The position numbers were made by a program, and so were the translations under genes. Under the pieces are notes generated by a model that was not told the DNA's origin, ran no database searches, and worked only from the letters and a program-made list of their open reading frames with translations. Source: Barthelona sp. PCE (Eukaryota). From it: a DNA stretch of 64,000 nt. The DNA lies in the NCBI GenBank assembly GCA_040285745.1, contig JAUFOR010000004.1, positions 434,001 to 498,000 on the forward strand, written 5' to 3'. Positions 2,471 through 59,800 of this stretch are shown one piece after another. The first letter of the stretch is position 1. Each line of letters opens with the position of its first letter.

Positions 2471-3028
2471 TTTTGTGTGTTGTGTTATTTGTTAAGGGTG
2501 AAAAAAGGAAAGATAAGGGATCAACTCTTAGTTTTTGGATACGCCACGGTGAGATCCCAGTATATCTTTTTAAATTGGGTCTAACTTTAAGTGGGCTGGA
2601 TATGTGTTTTGTATGTGTGATGTAACTAATATGTTGATCTATTTAATTTCCAAAATCGGATATATCTTCATCGATTTACAACTTTTTTTTCAAGCCCCAA
2701 GGTATAATATAGTGATATAATGCATTTACAGTGTAAAAAAGAATGCTATTTCAACATAAAAATAACACTTTCCAATTTTGAGGCTCGATAGTTTTTTTTT
2801 TCAAAAAATTGGTCGTTTCTAGGGGCTTTTATCCCATATACCCGGAGATTCCGGTGTATGCAGTGTAATTTAACGAAAGCCAATGTGTTACCTTTGTATT
2901 ATGAATAATGTTGTTTATAAGTATGTTGTGTAGTGATTATGGTATTTAACCTTGACCGCAAATAAATTTTGGACTGTAAAGGGGAAAGGTGAATGCTTTA
3001 TAATTCAACACCTTTACACTTGATTACA

Positions 3029-4129
3029 ATGCCATTCAAATCCAAGTTTAACTTGAAGAAGAAAAAGAAGGAAGAGGACGAAGAAAACTCTTCAGAAGAA
3101 GAAGAAGAGAAGCCAAAAAGTAAGTTTTCTCTTGGTAAAAAGAGTAGTGGCAGCAAATTTTCATCAAAACTGGGATCTAAGAAGAAGGATGAAGATGATA
3201 GCAAAGAGGAAGATGATGAGAATGACGAGAAGAAGGAAGCTAGACCTATCTCTGATTATAAACACACTAGCCGATTTACTACCATTGATGAGTCTCTTAA
3301 AGATAAGTTGTGCAAGTTGGATGCATCATTTAAGGCTAACTCAAAGAGTATAAAGAAAATTTCTGGAGAAAAGTTTAGTAGTTTGGCGGAAGTGGATACG
3401 TTACTCAAAGATGCTGAGAGCTTTGTGTATTCAGCGTTGAACGCAACTGATTCTGGTTCGAACTATATTGTTAATCAGTTTTACAAACTCAATATTCTTG
3501 AGAGCACTGGGCTTAAATGTAAGAAACTTTTGAGTAACGAAATTGTCGAGAGGACGTTACCTGGAGAATTTGTTGGACATATAATGGAATCTTTGAAGAC
3601 TGAATATAATTTATTGAACAATAAGTTAAATTCATTAAGAAGTTGTATTGAAAGTGAAGAAACAACTAACTTCGCAAAGGTTTTACCCGAAATTTTAAAG
3701 ATTAATCAAGAAAGTATTAGAGTAATGAGTTCCAAAATTGAATATTTAACTAATGCTTATGATCCTTTATATGAATCATTGGTAGATTACAATTCTAAGT
3801 TTAAGAATGAAGATTTAGCTAGAAAAGAAATATTATTTGGGCCTTTACCACCTAAGAAAGAAGAAGAAGAAAAAAGTAGTATTAAATCTCCTTTAGGACG
3901 TAAATTAGGTGGAAGTCTGGGTAAAGGTAAGCTCGGTGGAGGTAAAAAATTGAATTTAGGTGGTTTAAAGAAGAGCGATGGTGAAGGAAAACCCAAAAAG
4001 CTGAATTTGAGCAGTGGCAAATTGGGAAGTAGTCTAAAAAAGAAGGATGATTCCAAAGAAGAGGACACAGATGGAGAGAAAAATGAAGAAAAGCCAAAAA
4101 AGAAACTTAGCCTTAAACTGAAAAAATAA
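3029..4129 (+). CDS. Nup58/Nup49-like central-channel nucleoporin with Lys-rich low-complexity termini
   Basis: Core SRFTTIDESLKDKLCKLD...LPGEFVGHIMESLKTEYNLLNNKLNSL...LPEILKINQESIRVMSSKIEYL resembles the Nup58/Nup49 coiled-coil core. Likely start MPFKSKF at 3029; an alternative ATG lies at 2993. Confidence 0.6.
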   Translation: MPFKSKFNLKKKKKEEDEENSSEEEEEKPKSKFSLGKKSSGSKFSSKLGSKKKDEDDSKEEDDENDEKKEARPISDYKHTSRFTTIDESLKDKLCKLDASFKANSKSIKKISGEKFSSLAEVDTLLKDAESFVYSALNATDSGSNYIVNQFYKLNILESTGLKCKKLLSNEIVERTLPGEFVGHIMESLKTEYNLLNNKLNSLRSCIESEETTNFAKVLPEILKINQESIRVMSSKIEYLTNAYDPLYESLVDYNSKFKNEDLARKEILFGPLPPKKEEEEKSSIKSPLGRKLGGSLGKGKLGGGKKLNLGGLKKSDGEGKPKKLNLSSGKLGSSLKKKDDSKEEDTDGEKNEEKPKKKLSLKLKK

Positions 4130-4156: not shown

Positions 4157-5019
4157 TTATGAGAGCATCATACGTACGAACTCATCATAAGAGATCTTAC
4201 CATCACCGTTTGAATCGGCTTCGCTAATCATCTCATCAATCTCGTTAGGGGAAAGCTTCTCACCCAACTGACACATGACAAAACGTAACTCATCAGCGGA
4301 GATGACACCGTTGTTATCCTTATCGAAAACACGGAAAGCTTCACGAACAGCATCTTCCGAATCGTTCTCAGCCATTTTGTGGGACATCATAGCGAGGAAC
4401 TCGGGGAAGTCAATGGTACCGTTACCATCAGCATCAATCTCGTTAATCTAAACGTTAGGTTATAAGAGAAAAAAAATATTGTGGATAAACATACCATATC
4501 ACGGAGCTCGGCGTTAGAAGGGTTCTGGCCAAGAGCGCGCATTACGACTGACAATTCTGAGATGGAAATGCTGCCTAAAAGTTAGTTTTCAGAATTAGAA
4601 AATAGGATTCTCAAAAAAAATCCCGTTTTTGAAACAAACCATCGTTGTTCTAAATGTTAAATACTATTGTTTGAAAAAAAGAGCGAAACTCTTCAAAAAA
4701 AAAACATACCTTATCGAAAAGAGAAAAGGCTTCCTTGAACTCGGCGATCTGATCTGCGGTGAGGGCTTCAGTATAAAAGTTAGTTGAAAATATAACTGTA
4801 TGCGCAAAACAGTTGAAAAAGAGCACATTAAGCATTTTGTCCAAACATTTTTTGGCAGCAATGTATGCCTCATGGTGTGAACTCCATTGCAAACAAAGCA
4901 ATATGGCAAATAGCAAAAGAGTACAAAGAAAATTTTAAACATTACACCCTCTTTGTATTTAGCCAGTAAGAGGTGCTCACAGCTCCAAGTAGCGTCACAC
5001 AAACTAATTAACATACCAT
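4157..5019 (-). CDS. CaM: Calmodulin, 148 aa; exons 5019-5017, 4772-4710, 4649-4640, 4574-4495, 4447-4157
   Basis: Spliced product [73 protein letters not shown]...[10 protein letters not shown]. Four EF-hands; exon total 447 nt. Confidence 0.95.
4448..4494 (-). other. Calmodulin intron 4, 47 nt
   Basis: GTATGT...CTAAC-GTTT-AG. Confidence 0.95.
4575..4639 (-). other. Calmodulin intron 3, 65 nt
   Basis: GTTTGT...CTAAC-TTTT-AG. Confidence 0.92.
4650..4709 (-). other. Calmodulin intron 2, 60 nt
   Basis: GTATGT...TTAAC-ATTT-AG. Confidence 0.93.
4773..5016 (-). other. Calmodulin intron 1, 244 nt, apparent GT-AT
   Basis: ATG|GTATGT ... CTAAC-TTTT-AT|ACT GAA GCC. Confidence 0.75.
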
Positions 5020-10221: not shown

Positions 10222-11535
10222 ATGTCTATTGTTGATCTTCGTGGTTTAGAAGTTTATGATTCTCGTGGAAACCCCACAACAAGCGCATTCCTAACTGTTG
10301 CTCATGCTGATGGCACTACTGCTATCTACGAGGGTATCGCACCTTCAGGCGCTTCTACCGGTGTTTTCGAGGCTCTTGAGCTTCGTGACAAGACTGAAAG
10401 ATGCATGGGTAAGGGTGTTCAAAAGGCTGTTGAGAACATCAACACCGTCATTAAGGATGCTCTCATTGGTAAGTCCGTCGATCTCTACGCTCTTGATCAG
10501 ATTATGTTCGATCTTGATGGTACTCCCAACAAGTCTAACCTCGGTGCCAACGCCATCCTCCCCGTTTCTATGGCTATCTCCAAGGCTGACGCACACATTG
10601 CTGGTCTTCCTTTATGGAAGTACCTCCAAGGCCACCTCGGTACTGAGGCTGCTTTCCCCATTCCTTGCGTTAACGTCATCAACGGTGGTGAGCACGCTGG
10701 TAACACCCTTGGTCCTCAAGAAATTATGCTTGTTCCTGAGGCTGCTGAGACCATCGAGGAGGCCATCCAGATGTCCGCTGAGGTCTTCCACCATCTTAAG
10801 AACATTGTCAAGAAGGAGTACTCTAAGGTTGAGGGTTCCCTTGTCGGTGATGAGGGTGGTATTGCCCCCATGATCTCTGACACCCCCGAGGCTCTTGCTC
10901 TTCTTTGCAAGGCTATCGAGTCTGCTGGTTACACTGGTAAGATCAAGATTGCCATGGATGTTGCTTCTTCTGAGTTCTACGATGAGGAGAAGAAGGTCTA
11001 CGATCTCACCTTCAAGTGTGAGGAGCACACCCAGGTTCTCACCTCTGATGAGCTTGTCGAAGAGTACGTTCGTTGGGTTCAGAACTTCCCCATCATTTCC
11101 ATCGAGGATCCCTTCGATCAGAAGGATTGGGCCGCTTGGTCTAAGCTCGTCGCCCGTCTTGAGGAGACCGGTAACACCCACTGTCAGGTTGTTGGTGATG
11201 ATTTGACCGTCACCAACGTCGAGCGCATTCAGAAGGCCATTGACACCAAGGCCTGTAACGCTCTTCTTTGTAAGATCAACCAGATCGGTTCCATCTCCGA
11301 GTCTATCTCCGCTATCAAGCTCTGTATTGAAGACGGCTGGAAGATTATGGTTTCCCACCGTTCCGGTGAGACTGAGGATGCTTACATTGCCCACCTTGCT
11401 ACCGCTGTCGGTAACCAGATCAAGACTGGTTCTATGTCCCGTTCCGATCGTATGGCCAAGTACAACGAGCTTCTCAGAATCTCTGCTGGTGTTCACAGCC
11501 CTCTCGGCCTCGAGCTCAACTACGCCAAGTGGTAA
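10222..11535 (+). CDS. ENO: Enolase
   Basis: DSRGNPT, PSGASTG, GANAIL, GDEGG, IEDPFD, VGDDL, SHRSGETED and QIKTG motifs; strong codon bias. Confidence 0.99.
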   Translation: MSIVDLRGLEVYDSRGNPTTSAFLTVAHADGTTAIYEGIAPSGASTGVFEALELRDKTERCMGKGVQKAVENINTVIKDALIGKSVDLYALDQIMFDLDGTPNKSNLGANAILPVSMAISKADAHIAGLPLWKYLQGHLGTEAAFPIPCVNVINGGEHAGNTLGPQEIMLVPEAAETIEEAIQMSAEVFHHLKNIVKKEYSKVEGSLVGDEGGIAPMISDTPEALALLCKAIESAGYTGKIKIAMDVASSEFYDEEKKVYDLTFKCEEHTQVLTSDELVEEYVRWVQNFPIISIEDPFDQKDWAAWSKLVARLEETGNTHCQVVGDDLTVTNVERIQKAIDTKACNALLCKINQIGSISESISAIKLCIEDGWKIMVSHRSGETEDAYIAHLATAVGNQIKTGSMSRSDRMAKYNELLRISAGVHSPLGLELNYAKW

Positions 11536-14266: not shown

Positions 14267-15262
14267 CTAAAAAGGATCCATTCTCAACATCCTCTCCCGC
14301 ACAATTGCAGCTAAAATAAACTTATCTTTTAACATTAAAAACAGTTTACGTGGATTAGGATCTTTAGGAATAGCAACTGGTCCAATGTAAAAAGTGTTTA
14401 ATCCTTCAATACTAATCCAAACATCAGCATAAGCAAACCTACACTCAGTATGAACTGTCCTCGGGGGCTTCACAAGAACACTGATTAACTCTCTAGGATC
14501 CATGTGTGCATGATGCAAATCAAGGTATTCCAAAACAACTTTAATTATACAATCTGTAGCAATATCTAATGTGTCTCCGGGGAAGTTAGACGGCCTCTGC
14601 TTCTTGTATGACCAACCAGTTAGCTTCTCTGGCATAATACGATGACTTGGCACCATTTCTTTTTTCTTTTTCCTTCTACGTTTGGGGTTGCTTAAGTTTT
14701 GTAGCATCGGTGGTCGCTCCATCACGATCTCAGTAGGAGAATCAATGCGTTTCTGTTTTTTCCGCAATGTTGGCTCATCATCAACTCTTCTTAGCCTTTT
14801 TCGCATATGTTTAATAGTATCTGAGACATGTTCCTGAATCTCACTCAGTTGGTTTAATTTCCTGTCTGTGTAGTAGTTCGGTGGGTATTGTTGAGTGACA
14901 AATTGTGGTGCATTTTTAACGTATCCGTGACCGAGCTTCTTTTTCTTCTTTTTTCCAACTGTCCTCTTCTTTTTCCGCCTTTTTTTCCCATTAACAGTAG
15001 TCTTTGGCTTGGTTAAATCGAGGAAATAAGGTGATCTGTGCTTTTTATACTCATCAGAAAGTGAAATCTTATTTTTTTCTAATTTTTTCGTCTGTTTCAT
15101 CTTTGAAGTTATTGTAGGCACAGAATAGTTCATCTTTGTCAACTTAGATGAAGACTTTAGAGTTTTCTTACGTTGTTTTTTACGTGCTTTTTCAATAGGT
15201 TGAGGAAAGTATATGCTCTTCGGAAATGCTCCATACGAACCTCCTAAACCCGTCCCATACAT
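14267..15262 (-). CDS. Hypothetical basic (Lys/Arg-rich) protein
   Basis: 331-aa ORF filling the gap between neighbours, with NLS-like basic runs and a small globular C-terminal region. Confidence 0.75.
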   Translation of the reverse strand: MYGTGLGGSYGAFPKSIYFPQPIEKARKKQRKKTLKSSSKLTKMNYSVPTITSKMKQTKKLEKNKISLSDEYKKHRSPYFLDLTKPKTTVNGKKRRKKKRTVGKKKKKKLGHGYVKNAPQFVTQQYPPNYYTDRKLNQLSEIQEHVSDTIKHMRKRLRRVDDEPTLRKKQKRIDSPTEIVMERPPMLQNLSNPKRRRKKKKEMVPSHRIMPEKLTGWSYKKQRPSNFPGDTLDIATDCIIKVVLEYLDLHHAHMDPRELISVLVKPPRTVHTECRFAYADVWISIEGLNTFYIGPVAIPKDPNPRKLFLMLKDKFILAAIVRERMLRMDPF

Positions 15263-19268: not shown

Positions 19269-19991
19269 TTACTCATCTTGTACAATAACATAAGGCTTAG
19301 ATAGCATCTCAATCTCAGCTTCAATTCTATCCAACTCCTTTTCGTGCTCCTCTTTTCTCATTATTTGGCTCTCAAGATCATCACTCACCAATCCAAGACT
19401 CTGGTAAGTGTGCCATACCTCATCCCAACGGCTCTTCAGGCCCATGATGAGCTCCTCCTTCTCTTCTTCTCCAAGAACATGTAATTGGGGTTCATCTTCA
19501 TATAATTGGGTTTCTTCCATCTGAGCAAGAACAGTGTATTCATCGGCAATTTCGTCTTTAACATGTGTCAAGTACTCGGGAACTTCGCCGTAGTGTGGTT
19601 TCTTGGTCCAATTCAAAGGACTTTGAGGTCTAGCACCCTTTTTCATTGTTTTTGCTGTAATAATGTTGGTTTTAATAAAATCTTTCTCAGTGGTGGGGGC
19701 AAGGATACCATGGTCACCCTTGGGAGGCAAAGGTTCCTTACGTTTGATCTTTTTCTTTGAACCAGTGGAGGGTCTCAAAGTAGCATTGCGGTTTTCAAAT
19801 TGTTTTGATTTCAGGAACTTGTGAGGGTTGGGTCTTTCGACTTTGAGGGGTCCCATTGAACCCATTGAACGCTTGTTAGAAAAATATTCTTTTCTAGTTG
19901 TCTTTTTGAATTTAGACGTGTATGGCTTTGGCTTATGAACAGCGGCCTCAATTTCCGGGACCAGATCGAAGATAGATTCGTCGGATTGCAT
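19269..19991 (-). CDS. ENKUR: Enkurin (flagellar microtubule-associated protein)
   Basis: ESIFDLVP, SMGPLKV, KDFIKTN, YGEVPEYL, GLKSRW...YQSL and RKEEHEKEL motifs. Confidence 0.9.
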   Translation of the reverse strand: MQSDESIFDLVPEIEAAVHKPKPYTSKFKKTTRKEYFSNKRSMGSMGPLKVERPNPHKFLKSKQFENRNATLRPSTGSKKKIKRKEPLPPKGDHGILAPTTEKDFIKTNIITAKTMKKGARPQSPLNWTKKPHYGEVPEYLTHVKDEIADEYTVLAQMEETQLYEDEPQLHVLGEEEKEELIMGLKSRWDEVWHTYQSLGLVSDDLESQIMRKEEHEKELDRIEAEIEMLSKPYVIVQDE

Positions 19992-37132: not shown

Positions 37133-40100
37133 CTAAATATTGTTCAAAAAATTTTCTTTCTTTCTTCTTTTTTTATGGTCTAATACTGATACCAAAGGGG
37201 CAGAAAGTGGTCTTTGTGCTACAAATTCACGTGTAATAAGACGAAAACTGCTAAAACTGGAATAAAACTGATCATTTGACACTCCGAAAACACCATTCGA
37301 ATCTCTGTAAAGAAATAATGGAAATTTGGTTTGAATATAACTAATAATATCGGAGCGTGTGTAAAATATTGGTATATTAAGACTGGCATAACAAACAGTG
37401 ACTTCATCGTTGTAATAGACTGACACAAACTCTTTAACCTCATTTTCTGAAGCACCACAGGAGCGCAGTAGTGTCTTGAGTTTTAAAGTTTTAAGTTTTG
37501 TAGAATTTAAAGACAAAAACATTGCTAAATGATTGTATAATAGTAGTAAATCAATCACTCTTGCTTTGCGAATAACTGTGGTAAAAAGAGAAAGTATAAG
37601 AGTTTGTCTGAGCGTAACATTGCAATTATCTATGGAATAAAACATGGAATCGTAGTGGTTAAATACCTGCAGTAACAATTGGATCGTGGAGTTGTGAAAA
37701 TTGCGAATATCATAATACAAGATAGTAGGGATATTGTGACGCAATTGCTTGTATACATTTTCTGTTAATAGAAAAACTACTCGTGGTGATAAAGAAGCGT
37801 CCATTGATTCAACGATTGCTGTGATATGTTGAATATCAATATACGTATCATGAAACTCAAGCTTAACGAACAGGCAATCATGTTTAGAAATTATTGACTG
37901 CTGTTCTGATGCTGTAAGCTGCATAAATTCACATAAATTAATTAAATTATAATCATCATTGATCATCAGTGACATGTATATAAAATTATCAGCAAGAGCA
38001 AAAGATACTGGTAATATCAAATTACATGAGGTTATAAATATATCTAACGGTTCATATGCAAACAAAGCCTTAACATTGAATATTTCAATGCTACAATGAT
38101 TAAAAATTGAAGCAAAAATGGTTGTACAAGGCTCACTAACATAATTTGGAGATGTAAAAGGGGACAATACTATACACCAAAGGACTAACTTGCACAACTT
38201 GTTAGAGTATGTGATATCAAGAGCAGTATCAATGGTAATGATTAGTTCAGCAACTGCCCTCGTCTCTGATTTAACTAGCTCAAAATTATTCAGATGTTTG
38301 GTACACTGTGAAAGATCATCATTTTTAGCAACCGCAATTTTGGTTTTCAAACACTCATTCAACAGTTCATGAGATAAATCAACGGCAGAAATCTTATTTT
38401 TCAACATCAAAGGAGAATCTACATCAAACGAATCATTACTCAACAACATACTAATATCTGTGATACATTTAGAGTCAATGAATACATTGTGTAGTACAAA
38501 TAAATAATACATCGCTGTCAATCTAAAGTGAACAGGTATTCTTAACAACTCAACTGATAATAGATCAAACAAAGCTGTTTTTGGATCCTCTTGCTGCATT
38601 AAATTACGGTACAACGTCAGGAAATGATGTACAGGATATACAAAAACGAAGTAATTATCAACAAATACAGAGAAAGCATCATTAAAATTGAACAAATGAT
38701 GGACAAACCGTAGAGAAAAAATTTCAGGGTGAGTTTTCACAGAACAATCAATGTTAAAAAAATCAACAAGAGCAAGTTCCTCATATATATCGTTTTTATG
38801 ATCATTTAGATTTGTATCAATAATGTTCATAAACCGTACAAAATCTAACGGTATTTTTTCCTTATTTTTGCCAAAAACACGGTCAATCTGCCTGGAAACA
38901 TCTTTCTTAGTATTTAAGAAACTTTCTCCAATTAGTAACAAATCATTGTAAATTATTGAAATTGAGGAGCGATAATTTGCACAACTATTAAAAACGGAAA
39001 TACGAATATTAGGTTCAATAGGAATGAATGCTCCTTGGAAGTGCACATGCTCTGTCTCTCTTGTGCGTTTTGCCTTCAACACAGCTTCTATTAGCGGTTC
39101 AAAAAATTCAAAATCTTCTAATGATGTCATATGAACAAAGAAAAACTTATTTTGAGCAAAATTAAAAATCTCTTTCCACTGCCATGGATGAATAATCATC
39201 TTAAATATATCAACAATAATAACTGGCGCAAAAATTGATTGAACAGATGTTTTTTCCATTTTCACTGGAGTTACCACATTACTTATCATGACAAACTCAC
39301 TAGCCATTGCATAATACAGCCTCATAATGCGAGCTAATAGTAATTGTTGTGAGAAAGGAATTGGATCATTGGAAAACGAAATGGGAAATAATATTGTCAA
39401 TGTAACTTCAATTACTTTAGCAATAATTGATGGGTCCATACCACTGCTGATCAAAAACTCAGTAATTATAGATTTAACAAGCGGTACGGTTACTGAGCTG
39501 ATCGCTAATTGATAGAAAGTTAAAAGCAAAGAACAGACTTGTACGTGTTTCATAATCTCATCAGATAATGTGACGACAGGAAATACCTTAATAAGCTGAT
39601 TAATAATTGTTTGCTGTTCGTCTATACTTGTTTTAAGGCTTCTTACATTATCTTTCAGGTACACGATCCGTTGCTCCAGTTCAACTTGCTTCCTAAAGAA
39701 GTCCTGAGCCTGTTTATGATCAACTAATTCGGAAACAGAAATACCAGTGCCCAAATGCTTTGCCAAAATCAATTTGTGTTTGTGTAACTGCTTTTTTAAA
39801 TCCACAAGCCTGGACTTTTGAATGGATATATCAACATTTAATGACTGTAATAAATTCTTTAAAGTAGTAAATCTATCTTGCGCAGATTTAATAATTTCAC
39901 AAAAGGAAGAAAACAAACCAAAGTAGTTTGACACATTGAGACATGTTGAGATATTCATACTATGCAAGACATCAACACTGGGAAAAGTTACACAGTCAAT
40001 TTCATTAAATTTGAAAGTACTATTACTTGAAATGATTTTTTTCGAACAAGAAATGAATATATCGATATATATTGAAAGATCTGAACTTAAATACTTGATT

Positions 40101-43100
40101 GATTTCAACATATCATCATTCAAAATACAATTCCGTCGATCTATTGAGATCAGCTCTTTTGACGGCAAGGGGAAATAACGAGATTTATCCCAATTATTCG
40201 TCATCCTGGAAACAATCATACCTTGAACATGTTCAGATATTATATTAGCTTGCACTTCAGTAGCAAAAAGTAAATAAAAAGTGTAAAGCGGATGAGCATG
40301 ATGTATCGATGATATTATCATTTGCCTAATCTTAGAATTGAACATACACACGTTGATAGTGCTACAATCGATAATAATAGCAGTTGGAACCTTTGGAGAA
40401 GTATCATAAGAAATACTTGCATTGAATTTTTGACTAACTAAACTTCCTTTCTCCAACGATAGTCGCAAAAGGTAAACAAATAATTCAGTTGAAAGTGAAG
40501 TTGTCTTTGACAAAGTGTTAAGTACAAATCCTACACATGATGAAGTATCCTGAATGTTTATCATAATCTTTAGAATGTCTTCATTACAGTGATACCAAGC
40601 ACGGGAGTGTATGTCATGTACATTATTGTTAAACAAAGTAAACAGTTGTTCAGTTGATAAATACTTGTTGTTAAATATGATAAGAGGATCATTCAACTCT
40701 TGTTTCGATAATGGCATAATGTCCAGTAATTTTGTGATCATCAAATGACATTGATCATTTGAATCACAGAATTTTAATCGAAGATGGGTGCTAAATGCTC
40801 GCAACGCCCGATAATCAAGTTTTGTACCACCACTAATCATAGCCTCAATCAATTTAAAGGTACTTAGACATTCGTACAGCATAGATACATCATAACATTC
40901 GAGAGCATGATTGTAAAAAAGGTGTAAAGCAGATGCGAAACAATAATATATTTGCTTTCTAAACAAATACATAACATCATGCAGGTCAGGAGAACGTTCT
41001 AACAGGATTGATGTCATTATAGTCATGCTTTCTGCAAAATTTTTCAAGATATTATGCTCCTCCAAGTTAAAAAACCTGTTGCTGTAAATTGTATATAACT
41101 CTGAAGGGTTACTATTCCAACATATCAATAAATGTTTCCTAACACACAAGAATTTCTCTTCACTTCCTGAAACATCAAGTAAAACATTAGTACAATCCTC
41201 TAACAATCCACCAAAGTGAGCTTTTGGATAAGATATTTGTTTTGAATCCCAGATATTATCAACATCGAACAGAGTTGAAACAACAATATTTTTTGTGAAA
41301 GAAAAAGATCCATCAAGCACAATTGTTGAGGGAATATTCAAAATCTGTGAACCTATCAAATGGCTTAATACAATATACTGAAATGTAAGCATGTTTGAGT
41401 TAAGTAAAAAAATTTGTTCAAATGTGGTGGAACTTAACTTTCGGATCATTTGCTCCTGAGATATGGTCTCAAAAGATTGCAATTCTCCCGATTTCACTGA
41501 AATATAAGAGCCAAGTGCAGCAGTATTGAAAGGAGTACTTTCGATTTGATCAATCGAAAAATCAACTTGCTCAAAAACAATGAAGGGTGATAAATATGCA
41601 TAATTAACAGCATTTTTAGCAAATTTGAAATCTATTTCAAGATCGTTCCTTGTAGAACCTTCCAATCGAGAGTGAAGTAATCCTAAATATACCGTAACAG
41701 CAAAATGAAAAGCTACAAATCTATGATTCTTAAATTCAGAGTGTTTCCAAATTGTTCTAGAATAAAGATCCATTGCATCACAATAAAACTCCTTTAAATA
41801 CTCAACAGCTCGTTCAACAAGCTGATCTGATCCAAACTTACTTACTTCATCCTTAAATCGATGGATATAGTCGTCTAATACCTGTTCCTCCGAGATACAA
41901 AAGACGGGGGGCAGAGGTATTGCTTTAATATCACTAGTTTCATAAAATAATGGATTAATACTTTGAAGGGATAACATTTCATATCTATCAAATGAAGTAA
42001 ACACAGTAAACTTAAATCCAGTCTTTGCAATTATACATTCTGATAGTGGTGTGTTGTTAATTGCTGTATAATAATCATTAAAAAATTCTGAACTACAACA
42101 ATCTAACATTGTCATTTTAAACTCTATTCCAAGTCTTGGTAAAAATTCATTTAAAATACCCTCTACAACTGTGTAACGGATATCATGAGAAATAAGAGTT
42201 TGTATTGATATATGAACAGGAAAGCAGCATGTGATCGCGAATAAAAGACCATATAGACCACACTCATCATCACATCTACTACGATCCATGTGGCTTCTGA
42301 TGATTTCTAGAGGAGGAAACAATGGTAAGAATGGTACAAGGTCCTCAATTGAGTAATGATCAATGTTAGGGAAGAAGCTCTCATGCATTAGAGTAAAACT
42401 ATCTTTTGAAGACAAGTTTTTATACTGTTCAACGTGTTTAAACCCCTCAAAAGGCCACTCTAAGCAACTGAAGAACAAATTGAATAAAAATGATGCAAAT
42501 AGTTTCTCACTAAACTCATGTTCAGTAAACATAAAGCTAATAGACATAGCAATGGAGTTTGTTAATGATGAAGTATTATAAAGACCAAATAATCTTGAAA
42601 ATTCAGAAACATACTGATGAAGAAGTGTGCCATAAACTTGATGATCTTTTATCAAGAGCGCACAAAAAATCATACTAGGAGAAAGGCAAGATGATTCATT
42701 TTTGCAATAGGTGAAAGGAATAATGCTGTCACCAAAAAATGATACATCATAATATCGTTGAGAAGTAACAATAATAACTGCTCCTTTGGTGAAATAATTC
42801 TTAGATTCCATGCTGTTGATCCTTTCAACGGCTATTGGGATCAAAGGTGACTGAAGGAATATAACTAATAAGCTTTTTGAGCTGAACGTACGTTCTAATA
42901 ATGTAGTGAGGTTTGCTACTGACGTTTCTTCATTGTAATGAAAATACGACATATCTCGGAGCGAATAACAAGATAATACACTGAACATTCTTCTGGTTTC
43001 ATGATAATTGTTAGAGATAACAACAAAAAATCTGGAATCATCACATAACACAACCAAATCTCGCATTAATAAATGATAATTAGGTTCTGGAAGCAGTAAC

Positions 43101-46100
43101 TTATTTTTTGAAATGGCATATGGATGTATCAGTTCCATACCTGCTCTAAAAAATGTAGATAATCCAAATGAAATGTAAATAATGCAATTATCAATGGTGT
43201 ACGGCAGCATTTCAGGTGTGCTATGCGATAGACAAACATCATCAGATGTCAAATGAACCAGAACGAAAGACTCTAAAATCATTAAAAAATCTGAATGTCG
43301 ACGCACATTAAGGATTTCATCGATTCTCGCGTACAAGTTATACACTGTCACAATAATATTTTTAGCCCATTCACCTTCAATAGCAGAATAATTATTTCCA
43401 ATAGTTGTCAAAAAATTAACGCTTTCTTTTAACTTTTGTGCTTTAACAATGTACTGTTCAATATTTCCATTTCTAATTGATTCCTCAAGATCCAACAACT
43501 CCACTGTAATTAAACGTACAATGACCAAAAATCCACAAAACCTAGGTAAATGGATGAATGCTTTCATATCCAAATCAGAAAGATTGGTACTCATTTCGAT
43601 AACGTTAGTTGTCAATGCCAAAGAAATACAATCATGAATATCAGAAATAAATTGAGGTGCAACAAACCCTGCATCACTTATAAAACCACTGTCAATCACA
43701 GGTTTATAAGGGGAACAAAATTCAAGATACTCGTCTTGAGTATTCCACACGCCAACAATACTATCTTTCTCCCATCGAATTGAGTGTATGTGTGGAAGGT
43801 GCATAGTAACCATGTGATGACTGAGAGAACCGCTAGCCTTGATGGTGTAAAGAAGATCACAAGCTTGATGGAATTGTTCAGTATTAAAAATTACAGGCCA
43901 TGAGCTGCTAGAAAAATGCTTGTTCGCCAAAGTATCACAGAGCTTATTTAATTTGCTACACCATGTTTTAATCGTCATTTTCGGTAAAACTGGTGTGCAT
44001 TGAATCTTACCATCTCTATATTTACCAAAAAATTCTTGGGCTCTAATTTTACCAATTAGAACACATTCATCAACGTTAATTGAACTGAATTGAGATCCAT
44101 TCTTGGGTAAAGTATTAACCTTTTCTTTAAACAAAAAAGAATTTTTCTTAATAATTGAAAACCATATTTCCAAAGCATTCTGTACTTCATGAACAGTATC
44201 ATGAAATATGTAAGAAAACTGAAATAATGCACATAAATGTTCAGTAACATTAATAAAAAACCCAATATCGCTTAAAACATCATCTAAACCATTCAAGAAT
44301 ATTGTGAACTCATTCATCATACTGAGAGTTGTTTCAGTATAAATATGTGACATTGACAGATGCTCAAATATCTCATATGAATCGTTTCTGCTGTTTAATA
44401 ATTGAGTTTGTAACATCTTAATACAATCTAAACATAAAAATTGAAACCCATTTGTCATGAAAACATCAATATGACTGTCAGCAACAATATTAATAATTTT
44501 CTTCACCTGTATTTGAAGGGAATTTTCAAATTCTAACATTCTAACAGCTTTGTAAAATGATGATTCCTTTTCAGGACTGCAAATAAAGCTGATGAAATTC
44601 CGACCATGGACAACTTCACCTACCATTAGCTCAAACATCGAACTCTGACGAGTACTAAGACATGAATCTTGTAATGTAGTTATATATGGTAAAACTGCAA
44701 TTAAAGCTTCTCTTAACAGAACAAGCAGATTATTTATGTTATTGAAAATAGCACAGCTATCAAAATCAAAAGATGGGACACTTTTCAGGGACAGTTCAGT
44801 GTAAGGAGACTCAAATAACGATAGTATTTGCATGAATACGCGGTTGATATCAGAAAACAAAACATAATGTTCTCTTAACTGAAAGTTCTCCAATTCATTA
44901 ACAGCTGGATGCGATAGTGAAAATGAATAAAACTCCCTACAAAGGTGAGAAAAATGCTGGATGTCACTGCATGTTTCCATGGCTAGTTCATACTTCTTTT
45001 TAATATCACCCAAACAACCCAAAACGACACGCCCAACGTGAGAATCACTAAACTTTGACATTAATGCGCTGTAAACAACAAACGGATGAATACTTTTGTA
45101 AGATTTAAACAATGGGGAAAGTTTAGCCAAAAACTCAATATCATCAACAATTTTATCAAGATTCCTCTTCTGTACCTTTAAAAAACTTGAATATTGCCTT
45201 TCATAGTACTGACTAAATCTATTATAAAGTTTAAAAACATCAGAATATCGTTGTTCTAATACATCATACATTGTTTTAAATGCACTAAATAATGCTGAGA
45301 TGCTGTACAAAGTACCGTATTTCTTAATAAATACTGAATGCATATCATCTTCACCGTTACAAGCATTTAACAATTGAAAAACTGTTGATTGTGTCACATT
45401 AATCGTCTCACTACCAAAAATAATCGCTTTTTGGATTGGATCTTGGCACATTTTGACTATAACTGCCATATAATCATCATATAGTTTGTATTTTTCTAAA
45501 AAGGGGATTACATTCGTCTTAAAAAAGGTAAAAGATGTTTCTTCAGATACTAATTCAAGAAATTCAATTGAAAGTATTGAATCAAAATACGATAAAAATT
45601 CAGAAAAAACAATACTAAAACGATATATAGAGTTCCTTACGGTCTCGGGCGCCTTTAATATGATTGCGCTGCTGCATAAATCAACCAAACTTTCTTCTGT
45701 ATCAGTAATCTCTATAAGTACATTGTTCAAAAATCCTTCAAGGTAATACTGACGAATTTTGGTTGTCATTTCATAGTATGATTCGTAAAGCACATCACAA
45801 TTCACCAACAATCTCGTTACAATACTTTCAAAATCGTCATTTTTCGGTATTTCACCAGCTTTAGGAAGCTGGTTCAAAAAAACTTGCATTTTGGTCAGAT
45901 GTTCCTTGTTGCTTGAGATACAGCCATTGAAGAATGCTGATACTTTTAAGTTGAACTTCTGTAAAGTCACAACGAATTTAAAAGATGGTGATATACACAA
46001 TAAACTTACAAAATTCTTTATGTGATTGATTAAAGTCTGATGTAAAATTGTATAATATAAAGTTAATTCCTGAAAAATATCGACACTAACAAAAGAAATT

Positions 46101-52635: not shown

Positions 52636-53487
52636 CTAACCAAGCACGAATCGCTTCAGCTTGTTAAAGATGCCCTTCTTCTTAACGCGTGGGGTGAAGA
52701 CATCATACTCTGGGTTGTTGGAAGAGTTTGTCCTTCCCTGCTTCTTTCTCAAACCGCTGACAGGATCAGGTGACATACGCTTGGCCTTGTGTGGGGTACT
52801 GATCTGTGTTTGCATTAGTCTGTAACTGTTGTCATAGGCGCTGTTCTCGGCCTTCATGACACCGACTGATGTGCGTGTGTTTGGCAGTGTTGTGCCGTCA
52901 TGATCGAGTGCGTTCGCTACCTCGATGCTGTTGGAGTATGTGATCATGATCTTCTGGTTCTCTGAATCGCTGTACCATTTGATGACCTTACCGATATTGT
53001 TAAAAAAGGAAAATGTTCTTTGGTGAAGTTCTGGAGGAACACCAAATACAACTACAGAGAGGTTTTCATCGCGATCCTCGTCCATTATCAAACTCCTTTC
53101 CTTCTTCATTGTGCTTGAAATAAAGGATGAATGATTTTTAGCAACTCTTCGGTCCAATGGTGCTTCTGAGACCGATACTGATGCAAGGGCCTTCTTGGGG
53201 AGTGTGAATTCACTCTTGGCAGAAGGAGTAAAATTAGAAGGAGCAAACTTTTGATCCAACTGGTTTTTCTTTGCCCAATATGATGAAACTTCCTGATCAG
53301 GACGCTTAATCGAATGTGAAAAACTCGGTAAGATGACAGGATCTAACTCATCATAAGAAGAACCCGTTGTGGGAGTTTTTTTTGTACTCTTTGTTTGTGC
53401 AACTCTTTGCAACGCAGGAGTAATAGGAGTTGAGGGAGTTTCCCGCCCTCTCATCCTATTGTTTTTTACGAAAGGGGAATTAAACAT
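52636..53487 (-). CDS. NUP53: Nup53/Nup35 nucleoporin
   Basis: Nup53-type RRM (VVVFGVPP...ITYSNSIEVANALDHDG...VGV) and a C-terminal amphipathic helix GIFNKLKRFVLG. Confidence 0.82.
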   Translation of the reverse strand: MFNSPFVKNNRMRGRETPSTPITPALQRVAQTKSTKKTPTTGSSYDELDPVILPSFSHSIKRPDQEVSSYWAKKNQLDQKFAPSNFTPSAKSEFTLPKKALASVSVSEAPLDRRVAKNHSSFISSTMKKERSLIMDEDRDENLSVVVFGVPPELHQRTFSFFNNIGKVIKWYSDSENQKIMITYSNSIEVANALDHDGTTLPNTRTSVGVMKAENSAYDNSYRLMQTQISTPHKAKRMSPDPVSGLRKKQGRTNSSNNPEYDVFTPRVKKKGIFNKLKRFVLG

Positions 53488-53504: not shown

Positions 53505-54336
53505 TTAATATGACTCCAACGCTTCTTTAACGTTGCTGAGATGGTTTGCTTCGGCAGAAAAGTCCTTCATAACTCTGTCTAAGTGAGAATCTAATTCATT
53601 ACAATGAGAATAAGAATTCAATGCAGGTTTTGTAGGATGATCAAGACAACTGTGCACGAATCGACGATCTGTTCTGATATAATCACTAAGGACACATACG
53701 GCCTGATCCAAAGATGCAGATGTATTGATTGTAATACCAACAGCCGGATCAACACAATCATCGTCACAGAATAATTGTAAAAGTGCAACTTGGTTAAGAG
53801 AAGAGTTGCTCAACTCAACTGGAATCTCAACGAAAAGGGTTTCGGGATCAAATGAAGCTTCATTCTTCCTCAACTGCGCACCCTTCTCCATAATTAACTG
53901 AGGGCTAATGTAGAATGCCCTTAATGGATTTAATCTCTGTAATGCCCTCTTTGAATCGAAGAGCAGGCACACTGCTACATCAGAACTCTTGTGCAATTCA
54001 AGAAGATTCTTAATATCGATGGAATAAAGCGGTCCACCTCTGTAATAACCCACTGGTAAGCTGTCAAAGTGATTGATAGCACAGTACTCACGGTATTTCT
54101 TTGCGTATTCAATGGAATTGTCCTTAGTCCCAACACAGTCTGTAACCTCCAAGATACCATCAATTTCAAGTCCAAATAACTGTCCAAAACCGTCAAAATT
54201 GGAATTCAATATGTGCGTCATCATCTTTAGAAAAGCCTAAACGTTAAGAACATCATTAACAAAATTTTTATCATACCTTGCCATCAACTACAACGCTCTT
54301 CAAAGGTACAGGGATTTCAAATGGGTTGTCTGTCAT
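53505..54336 (-). CDS. EIF3H: eIF3 subunit h-like MPN protein, 263 aa; exons 54336-54277 and 54236-53505
   Basis: VVVDGK|AFLKMMTH...GQLFGL...LEVTDC...VGYY...LRAF...EIPVELSNSSL. Confidence 0.8.
54237..54276 (-). other. Spliceosomal intron, 40 nt
   Basis: GTATGA...TTAAC-GTTT-AG. Confidence 0.93.
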
Positions 54337-54432: not shown

Positions 54433-56862
54433 ATGCCTCTTAAGAAAGCTCCACTGAAACTTGGTGCTTCAAAAGAAGAAAAGCAACCAGAAACCGTTCA
54501 AGTTTCCATAACTCATTCATTTGAATACACTGCTCGTAGATCAGCAAGGACTGCGACCAGTGTTGCACCTTTGGGCCGTACAGAACCTGAATTACCACTG
54601 CAACATTTGTATAACGCAGCTAGGTATTTTCATGAGGAGATCGTCTCCGCACCTTCAAACGCTTCGTTTGACATGCATATGGGTGAACACCGCCTCAGCG
54701 TAGCTGGTATTAACTTCCATCAGACAACGCAGATGATCAACGAATTGAACATTAAGCCTTCCACTTCTGCAACAAAGAGAATTGAAAACCTTGACATGCA
54801 CCTAAAGACATACCATAAGAGTTCGCGTATGCACGCTCTTGATATTGCACGCGAGCAGTCGATCAAGTCCTTCGACAATTTCTATTATGATAACGTTGTC
54901 AACTCTTGGGAATCAACCAAGGATACCATCAGAAAGAGCGCATCGCTTGCATCCACTTACGTGTTCAACGAGTGGGAAGCCGAAAGCAACTTCTACTGGG
55001 ATGTTATCCACGACCAGTTGTTGGGCAATGAAAGTAATGATCTCAGCGGCCGTCTACTGGAAATTGCTGCGTCTAACACTGATGACGCCGCACTCCTCAG
55101 CCTTTGGGATGCCGTCCATACTCTCATATCTGAATCAAGTCACTTGAGTGAAAGAGAACGCCATAGTATATATGAAGGTTTGCATATTGCCCAAGGAGAT
55201 GATGACTCCACCCTGAAGGCATCATTCCTCATAGATGCTGGTATTGGATTCCTTCAGCATCAATACTATCAACGCATTCAAAACTATCTCCGTGAAAACT
55301 CAGAAAGCGCTGTTGGCTTGGGCAAAATGCAGCCTGCTGTTTACATTAGGGAGTACACACGCTTCACGTGTATGAATCAGGGCTTTGATTTCAAACGTTT
55401 CAATGATTCTGTACCTCTATGGCCTCAGATCTACTTCTTAGTACGATGTGGTTTTGCTGATATTGCTGCAGAAATGCTGGAGAACTCGGATTCTGAGTCC
55501 GACACTTTCATTCGCCTGGCTCTCCTTTGTTTTGCGCAGAATGAACCCATTAGTGACACATCAGTTAAAAACAGACTCCGTCAGATGTTCGTCAACCTCC
55601 ACCAGGCGTGTAACATCGAAGGTAGCTCATATGATTTCTTCGAGATGCTGGTTGTAGGCATTATCTCTCGTCAAAAGGTGGATATGCCAGATATCTTTGA
55701 AACAATTGATGACTGGTTATTTGCTCAGCTTTGCACCGTCGTTCGTTACAATGACGACGGTGTTCCGCTTGGCAGCATTTGGAAAGAGCTTAACCCTGCC
55801 ATCAGCGATGGCCATATCTTCTCACCATACAGTTGTGCCTTGATGTACATTTTGACTCTTCAATTTGAGCGTGCCGTTGATTTCTTAGCTCACACAAGCA
55901 ATATGGAGACGCTTCGTGATGCAGCACACATTGGATACTGTTGTCACCAGGCAGGATACCTACGAGTTACTGATGCTCTCAGCTCCAGCATCTTTGATTC
56001 GCAGACGCACGTGCTCAACCTCGGTAAAATCTTCCAGGCATTTGTTGCGCGCTTCGTCAAGGCTGACCAGGCTGTTTTAGTTTCCTACCTCGTATTATTA
56101 CCTGGAGTAGTAGCCATTGAAGCATTGAAGAGCTTTTTGATTGCAAACTCAGCTGAACTCAACACCCTTATTGGGTACGTTGATCTGGCAACTGGTGAAA
56201 CACATCAAGGACTTTTGTTCCGCATCCTCCCTGCCGAGTATCACGATAAACTTTATGAAGTCTGTAGTGAGATTGGTGAGCACTCTGTGCGTCTTGGAAG
56301 AACAACCACCGCTATCAACGCAATGCTTCTGGGTAAGGATTATGATAGAGTAGCCATCCTACTAAATAGCACACTGCTCCGTATGCTAGTACCAGTTGCA
56401 ATCATTCAAGGTGATGCAGTGATGAAGCCATCCTCAGAAAGACAGGAAATGATTGTATGGGCAAGTGACTTCATTGATTTTTGCAAAGATATAGCTGTTG
56501 GTATCAATATTCAAACTGAATTAGAGCTGACTCTTAACGTTGCACTGACATTCGATGCCTGGATTTATCGTCCTCGTAATGCTGCTGAGGTGTTGAGTCG
56601 TGTCATTAAAGCCAATATTCTTCCTTTGGAGACCAACTCTGATTATTATAAGAACAAGTTCCTTTCTCTTCCTCAAGCAATTCGCTCAGTAATTGGAGAT
56701 TTACTAATGATTGTTTTACAAGCCCTCATTGCGCATAAAAGAGGATCGCCTGAATATAAGGTGTACTCATTCAATTTAATGAGTTTTGCAGCACAAATCT
56801 CGAACCATATTCCCAAAAATATCAATATGCAACTAACTCGTCTGAGCGCAAAATTCCACTAA
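54433..56862 (+). CDS. NIC96: Nic96/Nup93 nucleoporin
   Basis: PLWPQIYFLVRCG, TIDDWLFAQL, LQFERAVDFL and DAAHIG motifs. Confidence 0.9.
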   Translation: MPLKKAPLKLGASKEEKQPETVQVSITHSFEYTARRSARTATSVAPLGRTEPELPLQHLYNAARYFHEEIVSAPSNASFDMHMGEHRLSVAGINFHQTTQMINELNIKPSTSATKRIENLDMHLKTYHKSSRMHALDIAREQSIKSFDNFYYDNVVNSWESTKDTIRKSASLASTYVFNEWEAESNFYWDVIHDQLLGNESNDLSGRLLEIAASNTDDAALLSLWDAVHTLISESSHLSERERHSIYEGLHIAQGDDDSTLKASFLIDAGIGFLQHQYYQRIQNYLRENSESAVGLGKMQPAVYIREYTRFTCMNQGFDFKRFNDSVPLWPQIYFLVRCGFADIAAEMLENSDSESDTFIRLALLCFAQNEPISDTSVKNRLRQMFVNLHQACNIEGSSYDFFEMLVVGIISRQKVDMPDIFETIDDWLFAQLCTVVRYNDDGVPLGSIWKELNPAISDGHIFSPYSCALMYILTLQFERAVDFLAHTSNMETLRDAAHIGYCCHQAGYLRVTDALSSSIFDSQTHVLNLGKIFQAFVARFVKADQAVLVSYLVLLPGVVAIEALKSFLIANSAELNTLIGYVDLATGETHQGLLFRILPAEYHDKLYEVCSEIGEHSVRLGRTTTAINAMLLGKDYDRVAILLNSTLLRMLVPVAIIQGDAVMKPSSERQEMIVWASDFIDFCKDIAVGINIQTELELTLNVALTFDAWIYRPRNAAEVLSRVIKANILPLETNSDYYKNKFLSLPQAIRSVIGDLLMIVLQALIAHKRGSPEYKVYSFNLMSFAAQISNHIPKNINMQLTRLSAKFH

Positions 56863-56868
56863 GTAAAC

Positions 56869-59800
56869 TCAGTCTTCACTGTCTTTCCGTTTCTTTAAGA
56901 AATGAAAAACTCCCAAAGTAATTACTGTGCACAATAAAAGTGTAGTAATAATGTAAACACCATATCCTCCTCCCACTGGCTTATTGACATCAGGAAAAAG
57001 CGTACCGGTGATGTTGTATCCCTGTGATATGATACGCAGAGCTACCTCAATGTTTGGACATACTGCAATATCACTTGCATCAACCTTTACCGAAAACTCA
57101 CGCTTACTGAACAAACATACGTATTGTTTCAACATATCCTTACAGTTTTGTGACAACCAATTGCAACGGCGTGAATGTACCATGAATGAAAGAACAATAG
57201 CGTATAGGTCCACAATATCTTTTTCCTTATACATGATATCACTGTTTGGTAAATAATCGAAACAAAAATGTCCCTTAACAACTTCCTTCACATCCTTTTC
57301 AACCAACCACATCTTAAAGGGAGAGTTGGAACGTACAACAACAAAGATATCAACACTTTGCAAAATGTGATTAGATACGTCGATCATTTGATACTGATTC
57401 ATAAACCCAGCAAAGGACTCATAACTGTCATTAATCATAGTGAACAGTGTCCTACGGTTGTCCATGTTGAACCTGTACACAAGCTCTTCATTTGAACCTT
57501 GACCAACAAATATCGAAAGATAATCAACGTGCTCATCGACTTTGATCCTGAACGGCTTCCCTTCTGTTTCCAATCGTATGAATGAATAACCAGCGTGGTC
57601 AAAGTACCTGCCCTTTGCATTTTCTGCCGGATCATCGTACAGAATAAATCTTTCATCGACTGATCCGACATAGATCTTATACTCTTTGGATGATTTAATA
57701 GCCATATGAAACACGTAGTACTGACCTTGCATGACTGCAACAGAACAAAAATCAGTACCGCTGTGCTCTACGTAATTAACATGCCTTGCTTCATAAGTTG
57801 CCGTGAGAGAAGTGAATGATTCAACATAATTTAACTTGTCCTCCACGAAAATCATAGCTGTCTGTTGCATTAGTAAGAACAAACGGCCATTGGCAATGTG
57901 CATAGTGAACTCTTGTTCATCATATAACAATATGGGTGCTGAAATTGTGTTAACATCAACGGTAACATTATAAACTAAATTATAATATATGGATCCATTG
58001 AGCATCACAACAACCATAAACTCTTTTTCCGATTGGTCACGTGCGATAAGGCTGCTACATGAATCATACGAGATTGTGCAGGTCAAACTCGAGTCGGTAT
58101 AGCATTTGTATTCGCTATCAGGAATTGTAAAATTATCAGCGTAGTCATCGATCAATGTCGTCTCCAGTTGAAGTCCGTACGTAACTATTGTGATGTCGAA
58201 CGAGCAACCATACTCGTTACAAACATCATCCAAATCGATATAGAACAATTGCGTAGTTGTGGGAGATAACCTCTCTTTTCCAACTTGACTTGTACTCATT
58301 TTCACGGGGAATGCGTGCGAAGAAACCCCAACTGCAAGCTTCTGTTTTATCATCGGTATTATTACAGAACGAAAAGAAAATGTCTTCAAATACCCAACAT
58401 TAAGCAACAACGGCTCCTTATCTCGCACCAATACTTCAGTCTTTATCAATACATAAAATCTCTGGGTACTTGTGATGTGTCCTTCACCATCGTTATCAAT
58501 GTACGACGAAAAATGATTGAATCTCTTGCATCGATTAATATCAGCATGACCAATTACTGAATCAGATAAGAAAATGAATGGGTGGTACTCATCGTCTTCA
58601 TCATCGATCTTGTCATCTGACCTCTCCATATTGTTAAAATCCAAAAAAATCATGTACAAATCATAACGCTCATCAACTGTATACTCCAACTTAATTGTAT
58701 TGGTTGTTGACTTCTTGCTATTAGACACTGTCAAAACACTGAGATCCGATGGAAGAATGGCTGTTTTTAACAACTTAACAGCACGTACACCTACCAGAAT
58801 ATCCATTGAATAAAAATGAAAAATGTTAACCTGTTTTGCTGCAAGATTGAAAATTGAAATACTTGATGTGATTGGGCACTTGTTGTTGGATCCTTCGCAT
58901 TGGCCAAACGTTACAAACACTGGCTGTGATTCTTCATCTTCATTAATACACCATAAAGTTACAACATTATTATGATCGAATGAGAAGGCGTTTAGTTTTT
59001 TGATTTGATCTTCTTTTGAATACTCAACCATAGCGTGCGGGCGACCGTCTGATACATCATAATTGAAAGCATGCTCTCCAAAGTCAGGAGAAAGTGTCAA
59101 ATATCGGAAGGCAAAATTACGTGCATCATGAACTAAACTATCCAAAAGAAATGCTTTTTGCTCTCCAATTTCAAACGAAGATGAAATCAACGACGTAGGA
59201 AAGTACTCTTTTAAAGATACCTTAACCGAAACAATCGATTCATCCCAACCAAAAAGAAGAATGTACACATCGCTTCCAGGAGGAAGATCTTTTGCTGAAA
59301 AGTGTGCCTGTGCCAGTGTACACTTGGCCTCCAGGGATAAACACCCAGCCACACCTCTATTCTCTTGTATATTGATCGGTGGGAGACATCTATAAGTATC
59401 AGTTGTTTTAATTCGCATTTTGCTTTTATACAGTTGAATAAGACCCTGGACTGTCTTTTTCTCTGGTGATATGATGAAATTACCAGAATGCTTTGCCTTA
59501 TCAGTGTTCAAAGTCGCATTAACCTTGAGCGAAACCTGAAATAACACAACACTACCATCAGTGGACGGTATAACAGGCATGATAGTATGGACCAGTATGA
59601 AGTTATCACCAACTGCAATATTATTAACGCCACTATTTGTATCTATACGTTGAGTAAAGACTGGTTTAAAACGAGCAAGAATATCACAGTCACCATACGT
59701 AGATACGAATGCAAAACGTGCTTCATTAAACAAAGAAAAGAATGTACTGATCTTTAAGGGATTTTCTATTTGAAAATTTAATAAATCCACCTCGAGTATC

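Follow-up and report, generated by a model that had tools for sequence, protein, structure and literature searches.

The nearest described counterparts of the protein studied here are the channel nucleoporins Nup58/p45 of metazoa and plants and Nup49 of fungi. These proteins (families PF15967 Nucleoporin_FG2 and PF21121 Nup49_C) have a helical core of about 180–190 residues, and their Phe-Gly (FG) domains are long and poor in charge. In metazoan Nup58 disordered regions flank the core on both sides. We have analysed a stretch of 64,000 nucleotides from the eukaryote Barthelona sp. PCE (GenBank assembly GCA_040285745.1, contig JAUFOR010000004.1, positions 434,001–498,000 of the forward strand), which we will call the window: all coordinates given below refer to it. 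A protein of 366 amino acids, P0001, is coded on its forward strand in positions 3029..4129. It is similar to Nup58 and Nup49 by the length of its predicted core, and these proteins are its nearest neighbours in the feature space of a protein language model. It differs from them by its tails, which have only 72 and 91 residues and are 47–60% charged, and by the absence of any match with the family profiles. Whether P0001 is a Nup58/Nup49-type subunit of the coiled-coil trimer of channel nucleoporins, which would have lost its FG domains, appears to us an evenly balanced question.

Other known systems share some traits with P0001. Nsp1 has FxFG repeats which lie between spacers rich in Lys, Glu and Asp. 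The FxFG region of Nsp1/Nup62 is like the tails of P0001 in having a hydrophobic-x-hydrophobic-Gly pattern between charged spacers: the FSLG and LNLG elements of P0001 differ from it mainly at the second aromatic position. However P0001 has only five repeats, with Leu instead of Phe, and its core is flanked by a tail at each end. Runs of Lys with Phe/Leu and Ser, like those of P0001, are presumably also characteristic of the basic-hydrophobic effector domain of MARCKS and of the amphipathic C-terminus of Nup53/Nup35. The tails of P0001 differ from segments of this type by the additional presence of long acidic runs, and membrane binding by P0001 is hypothetical.

A natural replacement of a canonical repeat is described in Tetrahymena, where the micronuclear paralogues of Nup98 have NIFN in place of GLFG (PMC8421043). 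In that case we have a different nucleoporin with long arrays, which keeps its Phe and has been localised experimentally, whereas P0001 is known from its sequence alone. An engineered Nup98-type domain, GLLG//L, is comparable to P0001 by having Leu-Gly instead of Phe-Gly (PMC9918544). It contains 52 uncharged repeats with an extra Leu in each of them and it excludes native receptors, whereas the tails of P0001 are short and highly charged. We found no case of a Nup58/Nup49 without FG in the open-access literature, within the terms searched.

Gene structure and organization of P0001

P0001 looks like the product of a real gene with a single exon. A preliminary description of this locus, made by a model from the letters of the sequence, had placed the coding region in these positions; it is indeed there, with its codon usage in frame, and all the peptide strings quoted in that description are found in the translation. 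The longest open reading frame (ORF) covers 2993..4129 (+) and has 378 codons; the ATG at 3029 is the second one in frame and gives the 366 amino acids. The codon-usage log-odds are 0.311 in this frame and -0.567 and -1.353 in the other two; the in-frame value is comparable to those of six neighbouring ORFs (0.16–0.32). The donor sequence GTATG, which is found in the neighbouring introns, does not appear within the ORF. A hidden upstream exon with FG repeats was also considered and rejected: the 548 bases found 5' of P0001 are interrupted by stops in every frame and contain no FG-rich stretch (0, 1 and 1 FG in the three frames). The different parts of the gene are the following, with the method of detection given in brackets.

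3029..4129, + strand: single-exon coding sequence of P0001, 366 amino acids plus stop (ORF listing, codon usage, donor scan)
2993..3028, + strand: possible N-terminal extension of 12 codons, MLYNSTPLHLIT (upstream in-frame ATG; either ATG is a possible start)
3029..3244, + strand: N-terminal disordered tail, residues 1–72 (composition, structure prediction)
3044..3055, + strand: motif copy 1, K-F-N-L, residues 6–9 (pattern scan)
3122..3136, + strand: motif copy 2, K-F-S-L-G, residues 32–36, one residue off FxFG (pattern scan)
3272..3838, + strand: predicted helical core, residues 82–270, about 190 residues (single-sequence AlphaFold2, heptad scan)
3272–3373, + strand: heptad segment 1, residues ~82–115 (simple heptad scan)
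3560–3673, + strand: heptad segment 2, residues ~178–215 (simple heptad scan)
3677–3814, + strand: heptad segment 3, residues ~217–262 (simple heptad scan)
3836..3841, + strand: the sole FG dipeptide, residues 270–271, in ILFGPLPP at the end of the core (dipeptide count)
3854..4126, + strand: C-terminal disordered tail, residues 276–366 (composition)
3947..3961, + strand: motif copy 3, K-L-N-L-G, residues 307–311 (pattern scan)
3998..4009, + strand: motif copy 4, K-L-N-L, residues 324–327 (pattern scan)
4103..4114, + strand: motif copy 5, K-L-S-L, residues 359–362, near the C-terminus (pattern scan)

The predicted helical core

The coiled-coil core proposed in the preliminary description stands as a prediction. 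Single-sequence AlphaFold2 gives, with low confidence, helices in residues 88–111, 119–156, 178–208 and 215–269, and the heptad scan gives three segments, with weak heptads across residues 115–177. The mean predicted local distance difference test (pLDDT) value is 46.6 when the whole protein is modelled and 50.2 when the core is taken by itself. Residues 1–73 have no predicted secondary structure. An alpha-helical region of about 150–200 residues with several coiled-coil segments is therefore predicted in P0001; such a feature is generic and not specific for any family. In channel nucleoporins the ordered regions have about 150–200 residues, split into segments of 40–80 residues (PMC4513098), and in mammalian Nup58 the ordered region comprises 177 residues, from 239 to 415 (PMC9727814). 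The succession found in P0001, a disordered tail, a predicted helical region of about 190 residues and a second tail, would fit the architecture of Nup58.

Comparison with nucleoporin families

The protein-language-model search in the ESM Atlas gives a positive signal, which is a moderate support for a Nup58/Nup49 identity. When the core was used (residues 71–290), the first cluster had a score of 0.85 with 167 shared features and PF15967 on 15% of its members; in the second cluster these values were 0.84, 174 and 76%. Among the other families represented in the top 30 for the core we find Nucleoporin_FG, Nsp1_C and Nup49_C. When the whole protein was used, the first cluster is named 'putative Nucleoporin p58/p45' (score 0.86, 170 shared features, PF15967 on 71% of members). 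All the named family sets in the top 30 of both searches are either Nup58, Nup49, Nsp1 or Nucleoporin_FG.

The same lists bear on the possibility that P0001 is a coiled-coil nucleoporin of the channel type which corresponds to another subunit: Nsp1/Nup62, Nup54/Nup57 or a partner in the Nup82/Nup88 complex. We consider this unlikely. It is true that the lists hold Nsp1_C clusters (0.76) and generic Nucleoporin_FG clusters (0.80–0.84), and that the N-terminal tail, with its K-rich motifs and acidic spacers, is closer to the charged FxFG region of Nsp1 than to the charge-poor Nup49/Nup58. The channel trimer and the Nup82/Nup88 complex are both '4'-shaped coiled coils (PMC9727814). However the PF15967 (Nup58) clusters are at the top of both searches, with Nsp1_C below them, while the Nup54 family is found in neither top 30. 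The presence of tails on both sides of the core matches the layout of metazoan Nup58, not that of Nup62 or Nup54.

A considerable number of results weigh against a Nup58/Nup49 identity. The Pfam-A search (hmmscan, E<=10) with the whole protein and two core constructs gave none of the families PF15967, PF21121, PF05064 or PF13874: its only rows are a 42-residue match with crAss001_48, below the cut-off, and SKA1 with E 0.092. HMMER (phmmer) found P0001 itself as the sole match among 1.84 billion representatives, and in a word-indexed search P0001 also matched only itself among 8000 scored candidates. Searches of the PDB chain sequences with the whole protein, the core and two halves (E<=10) gave no Nup58, Nup49, Nup62 or Nup54. 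FG-repeat domains at the sides of the core, which are the hallmark of Nup58/Nup49, are absent from P0001. Its Atlas scores of 0.85–0.86 are only a lead: according to the calibration of this search a score under 0.9 is a lead and no proof, and one third of shuffled proteins reach a first hit of at least 0.8, while one third give ten of ten concordant families. In the range 0.85–0.95 at least 170 shared features are found in 9 out of 10 true members and in 1–2 out of 10 chance hits or distant relatives. The Atlas and the model which made the preliminary description both respond to features of the sequence and hence may not be independent. The Nup58/Nup49-like core suggested in that description has the Atlas feature search in its favour, with Pfam, HMMER and the PDB sequences on the opposite side.

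The comparison of folds which had been proposed gave results which are uninformative rather than negative. With the low-confidence AlphaFold2 models no nucleoporin was obtained: Foldseek against the PDB gave no match at E<=0.001 (263 at E<=10) and VIA-align gave only generic or designed helical bundles, with a top Z of 12.8, the bar for helical proteins being about 13. The Nup58/Nup49 family fold forms only inside the heterotrimer. The structure part of the ESM Atlas gave template modelling (TM) scores of 0.17–0.36 to unrelated proteins.

The best sequence match in the PDB is the coiled coil of archaeal Nop5 (1nt2_B, E 0.013), a helical stretch of 103 residues with low identity. Owing to this weak match and to the K/E-rich tails we considered Nop5/Nop56/Nop58 as a candidate. 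It was rejected: neither PF01798 nor PF08156 appears at E<=10, and the 1nt2_B stretch has a low identity.

With no homologue or family match of any kind detected, P0001 could also be a coiled-coil protein which is specific to this lineage and has no relation to the nuclear pore, an alternative which we hold as tentative, though quite possible. Its polybasic K-K-[F/L]-x-L tails would then bind acidic surfaces, which could be membranes, nucleic acids or nucleolar components, as it happens with the K/E-rich tails of ribosome-biogenesis factors. A scan of metagenome DNA gave 589 pattern matches, none of them confirmed by tblastn. Orphans are common in the window, where Pfam gives no family (E<=0.001) for 12 out of 23 large ORFs, and other K-rich proteins are present in it, such as the one coded in 14270–15262 (15% K). 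The C-terminal tail has a net charge of +13, with Leu in positions i and i+2, and the Atlas scores lie inside the range which shuffled proteins often reach. On the other hand the named sets in both Atlas lists are all channel or FG nucleoporins, even when the tails are removed; no alternative family scores, apart from the two weak Pfam rows mentioned above; and a K-flanked [hydrophobic]xLG is found again at a terminus of each of the two genuine nucleoporins of the window, which we will discuss below. If the nucleoporin identity fails, P0001 would be an ordinary orphan coiled-coil protein with low-complexity tails.

For a short coiled-coil protein of the Nup58/Nup49 type the failure of sequence detection would not be decisive: it is expected in an isolated, fast-evolving lineage like this one, given that Nup58 appears patchy in screens of divergent eukaryotes with hidden Markov models (HMM), as reported in PMC2951903. 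We do not file P0001 as a member of the Nup58/Nup49 family, because both a profile match and FG repeats were looked for and neither was found; it probably works like Nup58/Nup49.

The tails and their Leu motif

P0001 has exactly one FG dipeptide in its 366 residues, as it had been noticed, and eight LG. The two tails add up to 163 residues and contain no FG. The N-terminal tail (residues 1–72) has 28% K, 21% E and 17% S; it is 60% charged with a net charge of -1, and has four F. The C-terminal tail (residues 276–366) is 47% charged and strongly basic, as noted above; it has 14 L, 15 G and no F. In residues 291–366 we find 30% K, 18% G and 17% L. Both composition and motif counts agree with the earlier description of disordered tails with K-rich LG/FSLG motifs on both sides of the core.

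The repeat can be defined more precisely than by LG: it corresponds to K-[KS]-K-[F/L]-[N/S]-L and is found in five copies, with its hydrophobic residue in positions 7, 33, 308, 325 and 360. In two of the five copies Gly follows the motif (FSLG and LNLG). The significance was estimated from 5000 shuffles of both tails, the fraction being that of shuffles which reach the observed count.

K[FL]xL: observed 5, shuffle mean 0.66, fraction 0.0002
LG: observed 8, shuffle mean 2.42, fraction 0.0002
[FL]xL[GKS]: observed 6, shuffle mean 1.3, fraction 0.0006

The motifs of the tails are non-random, beyond the effect of composition. A recent origin of the tails from DNA tandem repeats was rejected: in the DNA of P0001 Tandem Repeats Finder gives only GAA/AGA codon runs in 3055–3112 and a 9-mer present twice in 3213–3231.

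Tails and permeability barrier

The preliminary description proposed that this lineage may build its nuclear permeability barrier from charged motifs based on Leu. We find no support for it in tails which are so short, so highly charged and Lys-rich, and which have five copies of the motif. The same description considered that the cohesive FG domains of the central channel are normally poor in charge, but not all FG domains are so. Nup49 and Nup57 have single-block FG domains, collapsed and with low charge, unlike the 'tree' FG-Nups of yeast, which have highly charged, extended and non-cohesive regions near the anchor (PMC5222603). The tails of P0001 resemble this class of charged and non-cohesive regions, and hydrophobic-x-Leu-Gly takes in them the place of FxFG.

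Experiments with engineered repeats are also relevant. In the work of Ng et al. 2023 (PMC9918544) phase separation is lost when GLFG is changed to GLLG, unless further Leu makes up for the missing hydrophobicity; importin beta, transportin and Xpo1 are practically kept out of the Phe-free GLLG//L phase, and Lys is described as FG-phobic. With short charged tails and five motifs, these results make it unlikely that a cohesive barrier permeable to receptors could be formed by the tails of P0001.

A swap of FG for Lys-flanked Leu-Gly as the chemistry of both the barrier and the docking of receptors in this lineage is a reading which we consider highly improbable. The motif is non-random, two of its copies are FxFG-like and similar motifs are present at the N-terminus of Nic96 and the C-terminus of Nup35. 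No FG-dense stretch (>=4 FG per 80 amino acids) is found in any frame of the 64-kb window. The Tetrahymena paralogues of Nup98 (PMC8421043) provide a precedent, and the engineered Phe-free phase is still a selective barrier against mCherry (PMC9918544). However only five motif copies are present in the 163 residues of the tails, with their high charge, and the loss of phase separation in GLLG without additional Leu argues in the opposite direction. The other proteins of the window are not of the kinds which bear FG elsewhere, so their lack of FG says nothing. A related reading, in which the disordered arms of pore proteins in this lineage use Lys-flanked hydrophobic-x-Leu-Gly, not FG, to contact co-evolved transport receptors, is very improbable as well. 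If it were true, we would have a natural nuclear pore with a Phe-free, charged transport chemistry, with the motif multiple in the Nup58-like protein and single in Nic96 and Nup35. It is simpler to suppose that P0001 alone has lost its FG domains or that they have degenerated in it. Yeast tolerates the deletion of many FG domains.

As a Nup58/Nup49-type subunit P0001 would work in the following way. Its core of about 190 residues, with three heptad segments, would pair with partners of the Nup62/Nsp1 and Nup54/Nup57 types, and the N-terminal region of Nic96, whose gene lies at a distance of 50 kb, would link this trimer to the inner ring. The FG domains which are normally beside the core would be reduced to two short tails of high charge. 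They would keep the five K-K-[F/L]-x-L(-G) motifs, with FSLG and LNLG being FxFG-like elements in which the second Phe has become Leu. Tails of such a length, charge and content of Lys would not build a cohesive barrier; it is more probable that they are non-cohesive charged spacers, or sites of weak docking or of basic-hydrophobic contacts. The barrier itself would come from other FG nucleoporins. The ORF, its organization, the non-random motif and the lack of FG are shown by our data, and the identity as a nucleoporin, the partners and the part played by the tails are inferred.

Nic96, Nup35 and the recurrence of the motif

Two other nucleoporins are coded in the window, in genes less than 4 kb apart; between them there is an ORF of 239 amino acids (53505–54224, - strand) with no Pfam match. 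Their features are the following.

54433..56862, + strand: Nic96/Nup93 gene, 809 amino acids (PF04097, E 8e-52, residues 221–797)
54454–54465, + strand: N-terminal L-K-L-G of Nic96, residues 8–11, in a basic context (motif scan)
52636..53487, - strand: Nup35/Nup53-type protein with an RNA-recognition motif (RRM), 283 amino acids (PF05172, E 1.9e-8)
52639–52650, - strand: C-terminal F-V-L-G of Nup35, its last four residues, in a basic K-rich context (motif scan)

In Nic96 there are 220 residues before the Pfam domain. The N-terminal string which the preliminary description gave for this protein is present, from position 54433 onward. In other organisms the inner-ring proteins, including Nic96/Nup93, hold the channel trimer (PMC9100368; PMC9727814). 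With Nic96 and Nup35 in the same window, we expect this organism to have a channel trimer.

We have looked at the distribution of [FLIVM]xLG in the 24 large ORFs of the window (18,408 amino acids), where it occurs 30 times. Only five occurrences are in a basic context, defined by 3 or more K/R nearby: two in P0001 and one each in Nic96, in Nup35 and in a WD40 protein of 1342 amino acids. When P0001 is left aside, two of the three matches with a basic context are in Nic96 and Nup35, which together represent 1,092 of 18,042 amino acids (6%), a comparison which is post hoc and has small numbers. This recurrence is the kind of pattern that a shared docking motif would give. The FVLG end of Nup35 may instead be, as we assume, part of the membrane-binding C-terminus known for Nup53.

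We also modelled P0001 (residues 71–290) together with Nic96 (residues 1–220). The interface score (ipSAE) was 0.00 in two runs, in a test with low power for which controls were not folded, and this result counts neither for nor against the pairing. The low power is due to the fact that Nup58 is dispensable for the binding of Nup93: residues 1–150 of Nup93 bind trimers which contain Nup62, and Nup58 is not needed for it (PMC9727814).

Features of the window and of its source

The window is gene-dense. In 24 ORFs the stop codons are TAA in 14 cases, TGA in six and TAG in four. Introns are few: short ones split an adenylate/UMP-CMP kinase gene (1778–2480, - strand) and a calmodulin-like gene (4157–4916, - strand), which is placed downstream of P0001 on the opposite strand and ends at 4157. 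As read by eye, the donor of these introns is GTATG, and their branch site, either CTAAC or CTGAT, is placed exactly four bases ahead of AG. Such a tight spacing from branch site to acceptor is typical of intron-poor lineages, for example Giardia, Trichomonas and some yeasts. Scans of the 64-kb window with Rfam and for tRNA genes found nothing.

A protein with an enkurin domain (PF13864, E 2.2e-19) is coded in 19269–19991 (- strand); as enkurin is usually associated with flagella, it suggests that a flagellum or cilium is present at some stage. No Pfam family (E<=0.001) was obtained for two very large ORFs: 37133–48316 (- strand), with 3727 amino acids, and 56869–63903 (- strand), with at least 2344.

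The enolase gene (10222–11535, + strand) is informative on the position of the organism. Its product is at most 55% identical to any match in a database of 5.8 billion clusters, with matches in many groups of eukaryotes. In a tree of 23 rows, formed by the query and 22 named matches picked from the 119 non-self rows listed, it lies on a branch of length 0.99 beside the diplomonad Hexamita, with support 92/92. Both branches are long, and the pairing may be due to long-branch attraction. An apicomplexan origin was rejected, only from inspection by eye, since this enolase has no plant-like insertion of the type found in that group. The local GC content at enolase is about 45%, compared with 31–40% elsewhere in the window. 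A word search with Nic96 gave no relative besides itself. From the divergent enolase and from a Nic96 without any word-sharing relative, we judge the source to be an isolated, very fast-evolving eukaryote, with a compact genome.

Implications

Nup58-type proteins of divergent lineages escape annotation with HMM: in the case of P0001 only the language-model search indicated a family. If P0001 is indeed a protein of this type, it would be a channel nucleoporin which keeps its anchoring coiled coil and has no FG domains, FG being replaced by short charged tails with a Leu motif. We would learn from it to what extent the central channel can be stripped in a reduced, fast-evolving eukaryote, and it would provide a natural test of whether charged motifs based on Leu can serve transport receptors at all.

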